Part shown: piece by piece, positions 1,473-18,988 of the stretch
How the letters are laid out: every line of letters begins with the position of its first letter
Numbering within the stretch: position 1 is the first letter of the stretch
Assembly: GCA_030841195.1 (NCBI GenBank)
Contig: JAVEDA010000208.1
Coordinates: forward strand, 1-25,336
Origin: Actinomycetota bacterium
GTDB lineage: Bacteria; Actinomycetota; Actinomycetes; JACCUZ01
Reading direction: 5' to 3'
Length of the DNA stretch: 25,336 nucleotides
Position numbers and translations under genes: made by a program
Notes under the pieces: model-generated
Database searches by the model: none
What the model was told of the DNA's origin: nothing
The model's input: the letters and a program-made list of their open reading frames with translations, nothing else

Positions 1473-2660
1473 TCAGCGCGGCGTGAGCTCGAACGCCCAG
1501 TCGTCGACACCCTTGCGCGGCCCGGTGAGCTGCACCGGGTCGCTGCCGTCGTACTTCATCAGCACCAGCCCGTTGCGGAACTCCGAGGTCCCCTGGCACG
1601 GCTTGCTGCAGCCGGCGAGCGTCACGACGTGCTCGTCGTCGGCCCAGGCCAGCACCTGCAGCGCCTGCTGTCGGTAGACCCTGCCGGTCTGGTTGTCGGT
1701 GATGGCGGTCGGCAGGCCGCTGTCGCGGGTGATCGTGTACCGGCCGTCGGGCGACGTGAGCGAGAGAGCTGCTGCGTCGATGCCGATGTTGGCGTTGAGG
1801 TCGTTGCGGTTGCCGGTGGCGTGGCGGCCCTCAAGGTCGAAGAACAGCTCGTCCGGGGTCCCTGACGGGCTCCACACACCCTTGCCGTCCGCGGTCCAGC
1901 CGACGTCGGCCCGACCCACGTTCATCTCCCGGTTCGGCAGCGCGGTGAACGTCGCGGTCCCCGCCTCGGGATCGACCAGGACGAACCCGGTGCGCTTCGC
2001 GTCCCCCAGCCGGAACGAGTTGTTGCCCTCGGGCTTCTGCAGGTCGGGATCACCGTCGTACGCCGTCGCCAGCACCGTCGAGCCGTCCGGCGACCAGGCC
2101 AGCGAGGCGACCGGGTGGTCGAGCTCGACCCAGCGGGTCACCTTGCCGGTCGCCAGGTCGACGAAGCCGACCTGGGACGACGGCAGCGGCCCCTCGAGCA
2201 TCGCGGCTGTCGCCAGCCCGGGCGCCACCGCGGCGTAGGTCCAGTTCCTCGGCTCGTACCGACCGGTGGTCGGGTTGGCCACGGCGTACCGACGCTGCAG
2301 TGTCTGCCAACCGTCCGGCGGGGCGGGCACCTGCGTGTAGGTCACGATCGCCGACACGGCCACGTCGCCGGCCAGCACAACCTCCTGCGGCGGGTTGTGC
2401 GCGGTGTCCGCGTGCACGTCCCGCAGCCCGCCGCCCGCAGGTGTCCGGCCGCCGCCGTCGGTGCTCACCGGCCCGACCGTGCCGCCGGCGACCAGCGCGG
2501 CCACCACGACGGCCGCGGTCGCGAGGCCGGCCACTGCAGGCAGGACGAGCCGGCGCCGGCGCGCCTGCCGGCGGGCCAGCACCCGGTGGGCCAGGTCGTG
2601 CGGGACCTCGACCTCCTGCGACCAGTCCTGCAGCGTCTCGGCGAGCATGGTGTCGTTCAT
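1473..2660 (-). CDS. Membrane-anchored WD40/TolB-like beta-propeller protein, ECF-sigma-associated (possible anti-sigma/sensor)
   Basis: Short cytoplasmic N-terminus, Arg-rich patch, TM helix (LVLPAVAGLATAAVVVAALVAGG), then SLAWSPDGSTVLA and TSPDGRY propeller motifs; ATGA overlap with the sigma stop. Confidence 0.75.
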   Translation of the reverse strand: MNDTMLAETLQDWSQEVEVPHDLAHRVLARRQARRRRLVLPAVAGLATAAVVVAALVAGGTVGPVSTDGGGRTPAGGGLRDVHADTAHNPPQEVVLAGDVAVSAIVTYTQVPAPPDGWQTLQRRYAVANPTTGRYEPRNWTYAAVAPGLATAAMLEGPLPSSQVGFVDLATGKVTRWVELDHPVASLAWSPDGSTVLATAYDGDPDLQKPEGNNSFRLGDAKRTGFVLVDPEAGTATFTALPNREMNVGRADVGWTADGKGVWSPSGTPDELFFDLEGRHATGNRNDLNANIGIDAAALSLTSPDGRYTITRDSGLPTAITDNQTGRVYRQQALQVLAWADDEHVVTLAGCSKPCQGTSEFRNGLVLMKYDGSDPVQLTGPRKGVDDWAFELTPR

Positions 2661-3175
2661 CGGGTGACCTCCTCGGTCAGCTGCAGGTCGGTCAGCCCGG
2701 GTGTCCGGGTGCGGAGCTGGGCCAGCGCGCGGTGGGCGGTGCTGCGCACCGTGCCGACGGTCACGCCCAGCGCCTCGGCGACGTCCCGCTCGCTCATGTC
2801 CTCGAGGTAGCGCAGGACCAGCACCGCCCGCTGCCGGTGGGTCAGGGTGGACAGCGCCGCGCGCAAGGCCATCCGCAGGTCGACGGTGCCGGTGTGGTCG
2901 GGCGCCGCCAGCTCAGGTATCACGGCGGTGGCCGTCTCGTTCCGGTTGCTCGGCCGCCGCCACCAGCTGACCTGGTGCCGGTACATCGCCTGCCGCACGT
3001 AGGCCTCGGGCGCCTCGATGCCGCCCCAGCGGGGAAGCGCCTTGCCCAGGGCGGACTGCACCAGGTCCTCGGCGGCGTGCTGGTCGCCCCCAGTGAGCAG
3101 GTAGCCCAGCCGCATCAGCGCCGGCCCGCGCGCGACCACGAAGTCGCGGAAGCTGCGTTCCTCGTCGGCGTTCAT
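2657..3175 (-). CDS. ECF RNA polymerase sigma factor, actinobacterial SigE-like family
   Basis: MNADEERSFRDFVVARGPALMRLGYLLTGGDQHAAEDLVQ (region 2) and RQRAVLVLRYLEDMSERDVAEALGVTVGTVRS (region 4). Start placed at ATG 3175 behind GGAGG; the track's 3667 start is over-extended. Confidence 0.92.
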   Translation of the reverse strand: MNADEERSFRDFVVARGPALMRLGYLLTGGDQHAAEDLVQSALGKALPRWGGIEAPEAYVRQAMYRHQVSWWRRPSNRNETATAVIPELAAPDHTGTVDLRMALRAALSTLTHRQRAVLVLRYLEDMSERDVAEALGVTVGTVRSTAHRALAQLRTRTPGLTDLQLTEEVTR

Positions 3176-3362
3176 CCCCTGGACCCCTCCGTCGCCACAT
3201 CCTCCTAGACGCCTGGGAGTTCCGCCGCTATGCCTCACCGACGGCAGTTCGCGTGCCAGAGTGTCAGCGAGCCGACAGACGGCCACCGGACCGGCCCGGC
3301 ACGATCGTGCTACCAGCCGGAGGACCAGCGACCGGCGTAGGCGCAGGAGAGGAACCGAGACC

Positions 3363-3533
3363 ATGGCAATCCCCGGCAAGCGAGACCCGCGTAGCGACGC
3401 ACCCGTCGACGATGAGCAGGACGTGCAGGCCCACGGCCTGGACTTCGACGGTCTGGACGACTCCGGCCTGGCCGAGACCCAGGGCCCCGGGCGGGTCCGG
3501 GCGATGGACGACCCGCGCGCGAACCAGCAGTAG
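3363..3533 (+). CDS. Small acidic peptide, 56 aa (MAIPGKRDPRSDAPVDDEQDVQAHGLDFDGLDDSGLAETQGPGRVRAMDDPRANQQ), function unknown
   Basis: AGGAGAGG SD upstream of ATG 3363; only about 6 of 55 codons end in A/T, typical of real genes here; first gene of the co-oriented GAF-S8 unit. Confidence 0.72.
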   Translation: MAIPGKRDPRSDAPVDDEQDVQAHGLDFDGLDDSGLAETQGPGRVRAMDDPRANQQ

Positions 3534-3541
3534 CGACGCGG

Positions 3542-3599
3542 GTGCCTCCTGTGTGACACCGTGGTCGGGACAGATTCCGTCGACGGCAGCAGGAGGCAC
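3542..3599 (+). promoter_or_regulatory. Anti-SD/SD inverted repeat between the peptide and GAF genes
   Basis: GTGCCTCCTG (3542-3551) is the perfect reverse complement of CAGGAGGCAC (3590-3599), which contains AGGAGG. Confidence 0.55.
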
Positions 3600-4352
3600 G
3601 CGCTGAGCGAACACGCCGATCCGGTCCTGACGGACTTGACCGACCTGGCCGAGCTCGGCTCGGTCATTGGTCCTGCACTGGCGCCCTTCTCCGCCGCCGA
3701 GCGGCTGCAGGACCTCGTCGACGCGGCGCGTCAGGTCTTCGCCGCCGGCGCCTGCTCGATCGCCCTGCTCGACGAGCAGGAGCAGAACCTGGTCTTCGAG
3801 GCCGCCAGCGGCCGCGGTGCCGACCTCGTCCGCGGCACCGTGATCCCCATCGGGTCCGGGCTGGCCGGCTGGGTGGTGTCCTCCGGACAGACCCTCGAGA
3901 TCTCCCAGGTCGCCGACGACCCGCGGTTCGCCCGGGACATCGCCGAGCAGACCGGCTACGTCCCCCGCACCCTGCTCGCCGCGCCGCTGGAGACCCGCGA
4001 CGGCACCGTCGGGGTGGTCGAGGTGCTCGACCGGGGCACCGGTGACGACGCCGGCGAGCGCGACCTGGTGATCCTGGCGCTGTTCGCCCGGCTGGCCGCC
4101 GAGACGGTGGTGTCGGCGCGCCTGTTCACCCACATGGGCTCGCTGCTGCTCGGCTCGCTGGGCACCCACGCCTCCGACGGGTTGGCTGAGGCTCTCGAGC
4201 GGGCGGCTGAGCAGGCCGGCACCGACGCCGACCTGGCCGACCTGGCCAGCCTGTTCGCCCGCCTGCAGGCCACCGGCCCGCGGGAGCGACGGCTGGCCGT
4301 CGACGTGCTCACCCGGGTCATCTCGTACGCCGAGTCGGCGCCGCCCTCGTGA
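3561..4352 (+). CDS. Stand-alone GAF-domain protein with C-terminal helical extension; true start may be CTG 3603
   Basis: CSIALLDEQEQNLVFEAASG, GLAGWVVSSGQ, DDPRFARDIAEQTGYVPRTLLAAPL and GVVEVLDR are a GAF pattern; no kinase, cyclase or phosphatase output domain is visible. Confidence 0.88.
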   Translation: MVGTDSVDGSRRHALSEHADPVLTDLTDLAELGSVIGPALAPFSAAERLQDLVDAARQVFAAGACSIALLDEQEQNLVFEAASGRGADLVRGTVIPIGSGLAGWVVSSGQTLEISQVADDPRFARDIAEQTGYVPRTLLAAPLETRDGTVGVVEVLDRGTGDDAGERDLVILALFARLAAETVVSARLFTHMGSLLLGSLGTHASDGLAEALERAAEQAGTDADLADLASLFARLQATGPRERRLAVDVLTRVISYAESAPPS

Positions 4353-5161
4353 CCTGGACGCCCGCCTGGGCCTGGCAGTTCGCCGAGGGCCACCGCTCGG
4401 AGGTCGAGGGGCTGGGGCTGGCCGGTCCGATCTCGCGGGACTGGGCCTGGGACGGCGCGACCGGCGCCGGGGTCAAGGTGGCCGTGATCGACAGCGGGGT
4501 CGAGGACGGGCACCCAGCGGTCGGCCGGCTGGCCGGCGCGGTGGCCGTGGAGATCGACGGCGAGACCGGCGAGACCGTCTACGTCGACGGCCCGCACGAG
4601 GACCGGTTCGGCCACGGCACCGCCTGCGCCGGCCTGGTCCGGCGGGCCGCGCCGGACTGCGACCTCTACAGCGTGCGGGTCCTCGGCGCCAACCTGCGCG
4701 GCCGGGCGGCGGTCTTCGCGGCAGGCGTGCGGTGGGCGCTGGCAAACGGGATGCAGGTGGCAAACCTGAGCCTTGGCACCGGGCGGGCCTCGCAGTTCAG
4801 CGCGTTCCACCGGCTGGCCGACGAGGCGTACTTCGCCGGCTGCACGCTGGTCTGCGCGGTGAACAACATGCCGGCCCCGAGCTACCCGTCGGAGTTCGCG
4901 GCGGTCATGTCGGTCGCGTCGATCCGTGGCTCGGACCCGTTCGAGTACTACTACAACCCGGCGCCGCCCGCGGAGTTCGGAGCACCGGGCATCGGGGTGG
5001 AGGTGCCCTGGACGGCTGGGCGCACGATCCACGCCACCGGCAACAGCTTCGCGGCGCCACACATCACCGGGTTGATCGCCCGGCTGCTGTCCAAGCACCC
5101 TGGCCTGACCCCGTTCCAGGTGAAGACCGTGTTGCACGCGCTGGCGTCCAACGCCCGCTGA
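4349..5161 (+). CDS. S8 (subtilisin-family) serine peptidase, predicted cytoplasmic, no signal or propeptide
   Basis: Catalytic triad motifs VAVIDSG (Asp), GHGTACAG (His), GNSFAAPH (Ser); GTGA overlap with the GAF stop. Confidence 0.92.
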   Translation: MTWTPAWAWQFAEGHRSEVEGLGLAGPISRDWAWDGATGAGVKVAVIDSGVEDGHPAVGRLAGAVAVEIDGETGETVYVDGPHEDRFGHGTACAGLVRRAAPDCDLYSVRVLGANLRGRAAVFAAGVRWALANGMQVANLSLGTGRASQFSAFHRLADEAYFAGCTLVCAVNNMPAPSYPSEFAAVMSVASIRGSDPFEYYYNPAPPAEFGAPGIGVEVPWTAGRTIHATGNSFAAPHITGLIARLLSKHPGLTPFQVKTVLHALASNAR

Positions 5162-5172
5162 GCCCGGCCGCC

Positions 5173-5198
5173 CCGGTCAGGCGACGCCGCCTGACCGG
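5173..5198. terminator. Hairpin between convergent S8 and Crp-family genes
   Basis: CCGGTCAGGCG-acgc-CGCCTGACCGG, an 11-bp perfect stem 12 nt after the S8 stop. Confidence 0.55.
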
Positions 5199-5289
5199 CG
5201 TACGGCGGCAGTAGCGGATCTTGAGACGGCGCGCCGGGCGTACTGGGCATGCCGTCTCATGATCCGTCGCAGCTCCAGCCCGCCCTGCG

Positions 5290-5955
5290 TCAGGCGAGGA
5301 GGCCGCCGTGGCGGCGCAGGGTCGCCAGGTCGGTGACCTCGATCCGGCCCCGCTCCAGCCGCACCGCGCCGGCGTCGGCCAGCCTGCCGAGCACCAGGTT
5401 CGCCGTGGGGCGGGTGGTGCCCGCCATCCCGGCCAGGTCGTCCTGGGTGATCGGCACGACCACCCGGGCGGCACCGGACCGGTAGATCTCCGCGAGCTCC
5501 ACCAGCCGCCGCGCCACCCGCTCGTCCACGCCGAGGTACATCGCCTCGAGCAGCGCCTGGCTCAGGCGTTCGACCGTGTCGGCCAATAGCCGGTTCACGA
5601 CGTTCACCAGCGCCGGGTGCGACCGGCGGGCCTCCTCGAAGACCGCCCGCGACAGTGTCACGGTCTCGGTCGGCTCCAGCGCCACCACAGTCGCGGTGCG
5701 CGTGTTGTGCTCCTGCAGCAGCGCCAGCTCACCGAAGAACCGCCCGGGCGACAGGACGGCCAGGGTGGCCACGTCGCCGCCGGTCGAGGTGACCCGCACC
5801 GCCAGCCGGCCGCTGCGCACGATGTGCAGCGTCTCGCCCGGCTCTCCCTCGTGGAAGACGATCTCGTTGCGGGCGAAGGTCCGGCGCCCACTGACCGCGA
5901 GCAGGCGGTCGCGGTCCCGGTCGCTGAGCATGTCGAGCACGCCTGCCGTCACCAC
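5290..5955 (-). CDS. Crp/Fnr-family transcriptional regulator (accessory paralog); start GTG 5955 or ATG 5931
   Basis: cNMP-binding domain (VFHEGEPG, FFGELALL...RTATVVA) and HTH (ITQDDLAGMAGTTRPTANLVL). Confidence 0.92.
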   Translation of the reverse strand: MVTAGVLDMLSDRDRDRLLAVSGRRTFARNEIVFHEGEPGETLHIVRSGRLAVRVTSTGGDVATLAVLSPGRFFGELALLQEHNTRTATVVALEPTETVTLSRAVFEEARRSHPALVNVVNRLLADTVERLSQALLEAMYLGVDERVARRLVELAEIYRSGAARVVVPITQDDLAGMAGTTRPTANLVLGRLADAGAVRLERGRIEVTDLATLRRHGGLLA

Positions 5956-5981
5956 CGCAGTCGATCACAATTGTCCGGGTA

Positions 5982-6022
5982 CGACGAGGCCCCCGCGTGC
6001 AGGGTGCGCGGGGGCCTCGTCG
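5982..6022 (-). terminator. Strong 16-bp hairpin downstream of ORF 6031-6279
   Basis: CGACGAGGCCCCCGCG (5982-5997) / CGCGGGGGCCTCGTCG (6007-6022), perfect inverted repeat with a 9-nt loop. Confidence 0.65.
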
Positions 6023-6030
6023 GGTCGGGG

Positions 6031-6279
6031 TCAGGGACGGTGCGCGATCCCGGTGCTGCTGTGGCGGGCGCTGGCCGTGGCCGCGGTGCTACGGCCGTCA
6101 GTCGACTCGTCCTCGCCCGTGCTCGTGGCGGTGCTCGTTGTGGTGGGGGTCGGGTGCGGCAGACCGGCCTTGCTGCGACCCTCGGAGGCCAGGGCGGAGA
6201 TCGCGGCCCCCTTGTCGACGCCGGTGGCGTCGGTGGTACCTGGTGCCGACCGCGGCCCGGGCTCTCTGCAGTCGGGCAC
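6031..6279 (-). pseudogene. Probable 3' remnant of a Thr/Ser-rich protein gene
   Basis: Gene-like GC3-rich codons from about 6240 to TGA 6031 (DATGVDKGAAISALASEGRSKAGLPHPTPTTTSTATST...); followed by a terminator-like hairpin; its 5' end runs into an inverted-repeat element and there is no SD. Confidence 0.4.
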
Positions 6280-6344
6280 ACAATCCCGGCCGGCAGCGCG
6301 TCCGGCCGGCCCGATAAGGCCGCCATTGTGTGCTCGACTGCAGA
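6265..6344. repeat. 80-bp MITE/REP-like element with 20-bp terminal inverted repeats
   Basis: TCTGCAGTCGGGCACACAAT (6265-6284) vs ATTGTGTGCTCGACTGCAGA (6325-6344), 19/20 inverted match; inner CCGGCCGG stem; CTC flanks both ends. Confidence 0.6.
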
Positions 6345-6373
6345 CTCACCGCAGTTTCGCGGCCCCTGCACGC

Positions 6374-6413
6374 GACAGCCGGCGCTCCCGAGCTGAAAGG
6401 AGCACCGGCTGTC
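6374..6413 (-). terminator. Hairpin terminator after tRNA-Pro
   Basis: GACAGCCGGCGCTCC / GGAGCACCGGCTGTC, 15-bp stem with one G-U on the minus-strand RNA, 5 nt after the tRNA 3' end. Confidence 0.7.
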
Positions 6414-6418
6414 TTCTG

Positions 6419-6495
<77 letters not shown>

Positions 6496-6508
6496 GAGCC
6501 CGGCAAGT

Positions 6509-18247: not shown

Positions 18248-18296
18248 GTACGGCGGTCAGCGAGGTACGGCGGTCAGCGAGTCCGGCGGTCAGCCG
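18247..18296. repeat. 17-bp tandem repeat, two exact copies plus one degenerate copy containing the crp stop
   Basis: GGTACGGCGGTCAGCGA at 18247-18263 and 18264-18280; GTCCGGCGGTCAGCCG at 18281-18296. Confidence 0.8.
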
Positions 18297-18988
18297 GCGC
18301 GGCGGGTGAGGCGCTCGACGTCGAGGATGACGACCGCGCGGCCCTCCAGCCGGAGGAACCCGCGGCCGGCGAAGTCGGCCAGTGCCTTGTTCACGGTCTC
18401 CCGAGAGGCCCCCACCAGCTGGGCGAGCTCCTCCTGGGTGAGGTCGTGGGTGACCCGGACGCCGTCGTCGGTCGGCACGCCGAACCGGCGGGCGAGGTCC
18501 AGCAGCGCCTTGGCGACCCGGCCGGGCACGTCGCTGAACACGAGGTCGGCCATCGCCTCGTTGGTGCGGCGCAGCCGGCGGGCCAGGGCGGCGAGCAGCT
18601 TGTTCGCCACCTCGGGGTGCTGCGCCAGCCAGGGCTGCAGGTCGGCGTTGCCGAGCCCGATCAGGGTGGTGTCGGTGACCGCGGTGGCCGTGGCGGTGCG
18701 CGGGCCCGGGTCGAACAGCGAGAGCTCGCCGAACATCTCGCCCGGCCCCATCACGGCCAGCAGGTTCTCCCGGCCGTCCGCGGCGGTGCGGCCGAGCTTG
18801 ACCTTGCCTTCGGTGACCACGTAGAGCCGGTCACCGGGGTCGCCCTCGTCGAACAGCGACTGGCCGCGGGGGAGGTGCACCTCGGCCATCTGGGCCCGGA
18901 GCTCCTGCTGAGCCGCCGGCTCGAGGGCGGCGAAGAGCGGTGACCTGCCCAGGCCTTCGACCGGCTCGTCCTCGAACGACCTGTCCAT
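18290..18988 (-). CDS. crp: cAMP receptor protein (Crp/GlxR ortholog)
   Basis: [48 protein letters not shown] and [23 protein letters not shown]; GAGGAGG SD; conserved position. Confidence 0.96.

Follow-up and report, generated by a model that had tools for sequence, protein, structure and literature searches.

In the cyclic-oligonucleotide-activated CalpL-CalpT-CalpS and SAVED-CHAT systems, a nucleotide-sensor domain is coupled to a protease that has one dedicated partner protein. Here we analyze a locus that resembles them in logic. It lies at positions 3262 to 5955 of a 25,336-nucleotide stretch of actinomycete DNA (the whole of which we call the window), where genes for a small acidic peptide, a protein with a GAF domain and no other, and a cytoplasmic protease of the S8 (subtilase) family lie next to a gene for a regulator of the Crp/Fnr family. 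The sensor domain here is GAF rather than SAVED, the protease is of the S8 type rather than Lon or CHAT, the candidate partner belongs to a family of repeat proteins rather than being an anti-sigma factor, and there is no CRISPR or CBASS (cyclic-oligonucleotide-based antiphage signaling system) context. We give roughly an even chance to the reading that the four parts make up a regulated-proteolysis module, wired to cyclic nucleotides, that acts on its own dedicated small protein. An antiphage role was considered and rejected: PADLOC reported no system, only partial matches to generic models for subtilases and cyclic nucleotide-binding domains, and none for the peptide or GAF gene.

The protease has further counterparts among described systems. 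Like the cyanobactin pair PatA/PatE, the locus sets an S8 protease without a signal peptide beside a small ribosomally made protein, which in most genera carries several near-identical cassettes. Unlike that pair, the module has a bare S8 protease, without the PatG macrocyclase, the heterocyclase, or the PatA C-terminal domain; the peptide encoded in the window has one motif, and genes for export and modification are absent here. As no second S8 or heterocyclase gene lies nearby, we did not class the locus as a cyanobactin cluster, and to our knowledge cyanobactin clusters contain neither GAF nor Crp genes. Intracellular subtilisins (ISPs) of the Bacillus type share with the protease a cytoplasmic subtilisin core and a short conserved N-terminal extension that replaces the signal peptide and I9 propeptide. 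That extension, however, is PAWSxxF (PAWxWxF in the window) and not the LIPY/F pro-segment, which places the protease outside the ISPs, and unlike them it is coupled to a GAF protein and has a dedicated neighboring small protein and a regulator of its own. QhpE, the leader peptidase of quinohemoprotein amine dehydrogenase, is similarly small and is the best NCBIfam match (NF049966), yet its score of 115.8 bits is below the cutoff of 165, and no qhp-like genes turned up in the list of open reading frames (ORFs) or in a Pfam scan of the neighboring genes. Assignment to the mycosins (TIGR03921) was also rejected, the score being 97.9 bits against a cutoff of 278.75 and the protein, at 270 amino acids, lacking a signal peptide or anchor.

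On the regulatory side, the locus resembles class II CRP promoters (those of Escherichia coli CRP, Mycobacterium Crp, and Corynebacterium GlxR) in having a 16-bp TGT...ACA palindrome, with an N6 center, near −41.5/−42.5 and a regulator made of a cyclic nucleotide monophosphate (cNMP)-binding domain and a helix-turn-helix (HTH). It differs from them in its half-site, TGTCR in place of TGTGA, in its recognition helix, R-P/Q-S/T-V in place of R-E-T-V, and in an operator that, within this genome, seems to control one gene only. A previous sequence-only reading of the DNA had named no characterized system with this architecture, and our literature searches for the architecture and for the DVEGH motif of the small proteins likewise found nothing relevant.

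The source genome was assembled from a soil metagenome, in 526 contigs totaling 3.3 Mb at 83% completeness, and belongs to an actinomycete, one same-family relative of which (L056) is labeled Sporichthyaceae; the G+C content of the window is ~73%. The four genes, with the domains, coordinates, and overlap that the sequence-only reading had given them, were all borne out by the ORF list, Pfam, and the sequence:

3363 to 3533, + strand: peptide gene, 56 amino acids, from the ORF list, with AGGAGAGGA in front of it at 3345 to 3353
3561 to 4352, + strand: GAF-only protein, 263 amino acids, Pfam GAF alone; the exact start codon is uncertain
4349 to 5161, + strand: S8 subtilase, 270 amino acids, Pfam Peptidase_S8 alone, from residue 39
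5290 to 5955, − strand (convergent): Crp paralog, 221 amino acids, Pfam cNMP_binding and HTH_Crp_2

The GTG start codon of the protease gene overlaps the TGA stop codon of the GAF gene in the GTGA manner (...TCGTGACC...). The protease had been said to lack a signal peptide and propeptide, and its N terminus (MTWTPAWAWQF...) indeed contains no hydrophobic segment, nor did Pfam find an inhibitor-I9 domain.

The sequence-only reading had suggested looking for GAF-only genes beside homologs of the protease, and the outcome of that search indicates that the genes belong together. Taking as same-family orthologs those with at least 50% identity to the protease in the window, we found 13 such genomes, and in all 13 a GAF-only gene lies directly 5′ of the protease gene on the same strand; farther out, the flanks differ. 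(One unpublished genome, G030, enters only this tally and that of the motif clusters described below, and no claim depends on it.) In a wider survey, a profile of the protease was searched against one genome per species, giving more than 561 loci, and among the best 80 of these, which we examined, a GAF gene is directly 5′ of the protease gene in ~73. The neighbor check extended to the other two parts: the peptide family was found at at least 43 of these 80 loci and a Crp gene at ~70 to 75% of them. The 80 loci come from Actinomycetota, many Chloroflexota, one Dormibacterota, and single genomes labeled as other phyla, and they include two cultured strains, Phycicoccus flavus CMS6Z-2, which has all four parts, and Ktedonosporobacter rubrisoli SCAWS-G2, where the protease ortholog alone was confirmed. 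The 4-nucleotide overlap of GAF stop and protease start codons is present in 39 of ~72 loci. The linkage of GAF and S8 genes is thus far beyond chance, in a protease family that comprises 697 clusters (50% identity) at E ≤ 1e−30 when 1.84 billion cluster representatives were searched with a profile.

In some genomes the two proteins are a single chain: natural GAF-S8 fusions were found in P0003, P0005, P0018, and P0028. In these fusions the GAF domain almost abuts the PAWSxxF segment, and the helical tail of ~80 residues that free GAF proteins carry is absent or shortened. Since the fusions join GAF to PAWSxxF in this way, they suggest that in the two-protein form the GAF tail and the PAWSxxF segment make the noncovalent contact between GAF protein and protease. 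One of the fusion genes is followed by a Crp gene with a 4-nucleotide overlap, and the product of the gene opposite begins like a class III cyclase.

The GAF protein of the window (Pfam GAF, E = 1.4e−14) consists of a GAF domain at about residues 45 to 181 and a conserved C-terminal extension of four helices, and an AlphaFold2 (AF2) model (mean predicted local distance difference test [pLDDT] score, 82.9) accordingly shows a GAF core and four long helices. By both sequence and fold, its nearest solved relatives are 4MCW (the GAF domain of an HD-GYP protein), 5W10 (Lcd1 with cAMP), 1YKD (CyaB2), 2ZMF (GAF-B of PDE10A), and 1MC0 (PDE2A). Because these include GAF domains that bind cAMP or cGMP, the comparison points to a cyclic nucleotide as a candidate ligand. 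The earlier proposal of a partnership between GAF protein and protease gains from all three lines of evidence, the overlap, the fusions, and this kinship.

Membership of the protease in the S8 family is clear (Pfam Peptidase_S8, PF00082; E = 2.6e−26; 93 bits against a cutoff of 21.8). It should be active, because the catalytic residues D48, H89, and S233 (in GNSFAAP) and the oxyanion residue N173 are invariant in 62 orthologs. Its AF2 model (pLDDT, 91.5) is nearest in fold to subtilisin BPN′, especially to variants without the calcium loop. The PAWSxxF form of its N-terminal extension is kept across phyla. The idea that an "FAEGH" in this extension is a pseudosubstrate copy of DVEGH was dropped: the "xGH" occurs only in the closest genera, and PAWSxxF is the conserved part.

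Relatives of the protease occur in other settings. A sister S8 group (P0006, P0009, P0011, P0012, and P0015) has a Ser/Thr protein kinase domain fused C-terminally to the S8 domain, and at one locus with a P0015-type S8-kinase gene (L108, 573 to 2480) a 184-amino-acid gene on its 5′ side, GAF-like by eye, overlaps its start by 4 nucleotides. P0019 has a LuxR-type (GerE) HTH fused N-terminally to an S8 domain of the same family. P0025 (L107, 1317 to 4220) is an ABC exporter with a C-terminal S8 domain of the same family and may represent a peptidase-containing exporter of a new kind; the gene that follows it (4217 to 4594) encodes a 125-amino-acid protein whose N terminus resembles, by eye, an NHLP/Nif11-type leader.

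The peptide encoded in the window is an acidic protein of 56 amino acids with no Pfam match and a single motif, DVQAH, which corresponds to DVEGH in a genome of the same genus and to DVQGH in a closely related genus. Six-frame reading of the DNA beside GAF genes in other genera revealed proteins built of tandem units containing this motif, such as DDDVEGHKKHLGL (five times), DDDVEGHKMKLPKA (12 times), and DDEVEGHKKVRAI (seven times). Most genera encode a protein of 3 to 13 near-identical units, often followed by basic pairs, and the N termini of the repeat proteins (MSGIQGNRDHDPRRDAPSDEVEGH...) align with that of the window peptide (MAIPGKRDPRSDAPVDDEQDVQAH...); Chloroflexota members have a helical N terminus and EVAAHS or DEVEAHS units. 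We define the family as small acidic proteins with at least one [DE]-[VT]-[EQ]-[GA]-H motif, encoded beside a GAF-S8 pair and behind a TGTCR-N6-YGACA site. The window peptide has all of these features, and from its sequence we class it as a reduced, peripheral, single-motif member of this unnamed DVEGH-motif family. The sequence-only reading was right about the small acidic gene itself but missed both its family and its promoter site.

At 12 of 15 family loci the GAF-S8 pair has a gene of the family next to it. The arrangement is one of three: divergent from the GAF gene in six, between the S8 and Crp genes in three, and co-oriented 5′ of the GAF gene only in the clade of the window. The linkage has therefore survived rearrangement. 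In the wider survey, 38 of the 80 loci have an ORF with two or more motifs by the strict pattern and 43 by a relaxed one, whereas reversed-sequence controls gave none in 80. At the DNA level, a degenerate pattern for the motif has a background of ~5 to 10 matches per genome, so that only clusters can be interpreted; in the relatives listed, words encoding DVEGH cluster at module loci and nowhere else, and no second copy of the peptide gene was found in the genome of the window. Searching genome-wide for relatives of one repeat protein, an approach too insensitive to decide presence or absence, recovered the closest repeat genes only.

Several features speak to the reality of the peptide gene. 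Other annotation pipelines place a hypothetical protein of 56 to 59 amino acids here; 14 lineage variants from public data keep PGKRDPRxDAPVDDEQDV..HG...DG.DD and a C-terminal NQQ; insertions and deletions between orthologs are in frame; and RNA contigs show four population variants, all at third codon positions. The dN/dS ratio is ~0.5 or more, against 0.07 to 0.24 for the neighboring genes, on very few sites. Judged by these comparisons, the peptide gene is real and under weaker constraint than the enzyme genes.

Elsewhere in the family, two DVEGH-family genes lie near one GAF-S8 pair at L028 (1452 to 1604 and 4849 to 5061), L033 (3340 to 3531 and 6611 to 6802), L064, and L106, and the copies at L033 are near identical, one on each side, each behind the same TGTCGGGAGGATGACA site. 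At L015 (9660 to 10013) and L020 (9700 to 10163; the same as L027), the repeat array shifts frame partway, which means either that the gene is truly frameshifted or that sequencing or assembly introduced an indel into the repeat.

Upstream of the peptide gene of the window are two further elements:

3262 to 3277: operator, a 16-bp palindrome (TGTCAGCGAGCCGACA) of consensus TGTCR-N6-YGACA, probably bound by the linked Crp paralog
3300 to 3305, + strand: probable −10 element CACGAT, 22 nucleotides past the operator, with transcription predicted to start near 3312

The sequence TGT-N10-ACAGAC is found 75 to 101 nucleotides 5′ of the start codon in all 12 peptide genes of the family, the window having the largest distance (−101). 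With a weight matrix from ten sites, 3262 to 3277 scored 31.8 against 18.9 for the next best match anywhere in the genome, making the operator unique there; no peptide gene lies behind that second match (contig C113). The palindrome recurs before peptide genes in other phyla: TGT-N10-ACA, almost always as TGTCR-N6-YGACA, occurs at −170 to −30 in 28 of 41 peptide genes from the wider loci, against a chance expectation of 2%. Low-G+C Chloroflexota loci have TATAAT or TATAGT exactly 21 nucleotides past the palindrome, whose center is thereby at −41.5, the position of a class II CRP activator. Family loci have CAtgaT-like hexamers 21 to 22 nucleotides from the operator, and the operator of the window would lie ~42 bp 5′ of the start of transcription predicted for the peptide gene. 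Simple scans of 3100 to 6500 for sigma-70 promoters and intrinsic terminators gave no match, as expected because the DNA is 73% G+C.

The Crp paralog is a member of the Crp/Fnr family (PF00027, 82 bits; PF13545, 63.8 bits), its best solved relatives are Crp-family regulators, and it keeps the FGE...RTA cassette that binds the cNMP phosphate. It had been described as the second Crp/Fnr regulator of the window, and the other one is indeed present:

18290 to 18988, − strand: canonical Crp/GlxR-type regulator, recognition helix RETVNK

The two are 33% identical, and the recognition helix of the paralog reads R-P-T-A-N-L. In 66 loci, the module-linked Crps all have R-[PQ]-[ST]-V at this position and none has the canonical R-E. 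Glu181 of E. coli CRP reads the second G of TGTGA and has a role in half-site specificity. An identity as canonical cAMP-CRP (R-E-x-x-x-R/K reading TGTGA) was ruled out for the paralog by the helix R-P-T-A-N-L together with the site TGTCA...CGACA, and a proline in place of the recognition glutamate fits the change of G to C in the half-site (TGTC for TGTG). Because the operator differs at the very base that the glutamate reads, the paralog rather than the canonical Crp is likely to be the protein that binds 3262 to 3277. The sequence-only reading had offered the Crp protein as either output or controller of the module. A role as controller is favored by the Crp-type site, which is conserved and sits where a class II activator would bind the promoter of the peptide gene; a proteolytic "output" found no support.

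Contigs from four soil metatranscriptome runs, 93 to 99% identical to the window, were mapped on 2900 to 6200. Depth peaked over the peptide gene, where it reached 577 in one run, fell from 189 to 32 across the GAF gene, and was ~1 over the protease gene and ~0 over the neighboring sigma-factor and Crp genes. DNA carryover is unlikely, because these flanking genes are silent. The most upstream ends of the RNA contigs are at 3340, 3355, and 3396, with none further 5′, and one contig (3355 to 4463) covers the peptide gene, the GAF gene, and the start of the protease gene. Such a profile fits a promoter just 5′ of the peptide gene from which the small protein is strongly expressed, while read-through into the GAF and protease genes is attenuated.

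Drawing on gene linkage across phyla, GAF-S8 fusions, promoter layout, the changed recognition helix of Crp, and transcription in soil, we propose the following mechanism. The Crp paralog, on binding a cyclic nucleotide from one of the cyclases of the genome, would occupy 3262 to 3277 and from about −42 activate the promoter of the peptide gene. (No nucleotide cyclase had been noted in the window, and the contig does lack a class III cyclase; seven cyclase-domain matches lie elsewhere in the genome, which has 12 matches to the cNMP-binding domain.) In the lineage of the window, transcription would continue from the peptide gene into the GAF and protease genes at falling levels, and because of this fall the small protein would be made in large excess over the enzyme. 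The translationally coupled GAF protein and protease would form one complex, in which the GAF protein, presumably of the type that binds cAMP or cGMP, would control the protease. The acidic DV(E/Q)(G/A)H protein would be the dedicated target, cut at or next to the conserved motif.

Several points weigh against this mechanism. The identity of the ligand, the binding of GAF to S8, the cleavage of the peptide, and the roles of the products are things that we infer; the GAF domain may have a ligand that is not a cyclic nucleotide, and the canonical Crp rather than the paralog could be what binds the operator. In ~45% of the wider loci no recognizable peptide gene was found within 6 kb, nor was a Crp gene in ~25 to 30%. 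The window peptide has a single, degenerate motif and evolves faster than its neighbors. RNA contigs that are 93 to 99% identical represent the RNA of close relatives, and a contig that runs across genes is not proof of a single transcript.

Other explanations start from the repeat units. A tentative extension, which we regard as possible but doubtful, is processing of the prohormone kind: cAMP or cGMP would induce a multicopy precursor through Crp and at the same time unlock the GAF-gated subtilase, whose cuts at each DVEGH unit would release bioactive peptides that act in the cell or after export, the lineage of the window being reduced to a single-unit precursor. The related possibility that this is a peptide-signal pathway resembling those of ribosomally synthesized and posttranslationally modified peptides (RiPPs), in which the subtilase cuts a precursor (multicore in most genera) into exported signals or bioactive peptides while Crp and GAF do no more than set the timing of production, strikes us as improbable. 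It would account for the 3 to 13 near-identical units and their basic pairs, for the leader peptidase QhpE as best NCBIfam match, and for the close S8 relative that is fused to an ABC exporter beside a precursor of NHLP/Nif11-type appearance. Nevertheless, no transporter or modifying enzyme adjoins the module in the window or at most family loci, the units are very acidic and hydrophilic, the window peptide has but one motif, and the QhpE score is below its cutoff. The same units bear on whether the small protein is instead a pseudosubstrate inhibitor or regulator that restrains the GAF-S8 pair, with other cellular proteins as the real substrates, which we consider unlikely. Short N-terminal segments block intracellular subtilisins, docking could take place at the invariant short motif, the mRNA of the peptide is in large excess over that of the protease, and there is a weak Atlas lead to the Inhibitor_I10 family (score, only 0.52). 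A motif multiplied in tandem up to 13 times is, however, more typical of a substrate that is consumed than of a stoichiometric inhibitor, and the peptide has no significant similarity to known families of protease inhibitors.

The composition of the units raises the question of metal handling: units rich in Asp, Glu, and His could bind metal, and cleavage after the conserved Val or Thr would expose X-X-His N termini of the amino-terminal Cu- and Ni-binding (ATCUN) type. The His three residues past this Val or Thr is indeed present in DVEGH, DTEGH, DVQAH, EVAAH, and EVSGH, but one locus has DVEGN repeats, without His, and no metal transporters or regulators were seen in the neighborhoods, so that we hold this explanation to be highly improbable. 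That the genes are neighbors by descent only, with no common function, has a probability close to negligible in our view; the variable wider flanks and the parts missing at some loci are what it could explain, whereas linkage that outlasts inversions and reorderings across several phyla, the fusions, the start/stop overlap, and the dedicated operator all speak against it. On the linkage, the promoter architecture, and the fusions, the earlier view of the four genes as a functional unit held up.

The surroundings of the regulated-proteolysis module are variable. The sequence-only reading had put it in an accessory zone behind a tRNA gene:

6418 to 6492, − strand: tRNA-Pro(CGG)

The flanks do vary between close relatives, but no att-like direct repeat of the end of tRNA-Pro was found (the flanks were not screened for an integrase gene), and a genomic island at tRNA-Pro was rejected as unsupported. 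Genome L013, of the same genus, has the sigma/anti-sigma side in common with the window and not the side with tRNA-Pro and the penicillin-binding protein (PBP) gene, while L014, from another genus and with 94% identity in the protease, has the tRNA-Pro/PBP side in common and not the other. Judging from these mosaic flanks, the module sits at a rearrangement-prone place. The sigma/anti-sigma side (1473 to 3172, − strand, divergent from the peptide gene) consists of an extracytoplasmic function (ECF) sigma factor gene at 2657 to 3172 and a gene for a 395-amino-acid probable anti-sigma or membrane protein at 1473 to 2660; the pair is kept only in L013 and not in other genera. Between tRNA-Pro and the Crp gene, strong hairpins at 5982 to 6022 and 6265 to 6344 (a perfect 16-bp stem with a 9-nucleotide loop and 27-nucleotide arms that are 89% complementary, respectively) may terminate transcription of the tRNA gene or belong to the region upstream of Crp.

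Taken together, these results describe a gene set that is conserved among hundreds of soil bacteria and is most likely a messenger-controlled protein-cutting module. It is compact, four genes and one operator, and is carried by cultured strains. If the proposed mechanism is true, it would be a widespread route in soil bacteria from a cyclic-nucleotide signal to proteolysis of a dedicated small protein and would represent a new class of output for cAMP/cGMP signaling, with GAF as a new regulatory partner for subtilases and the DVEGH proteins as a new family of repeat miniproteins.

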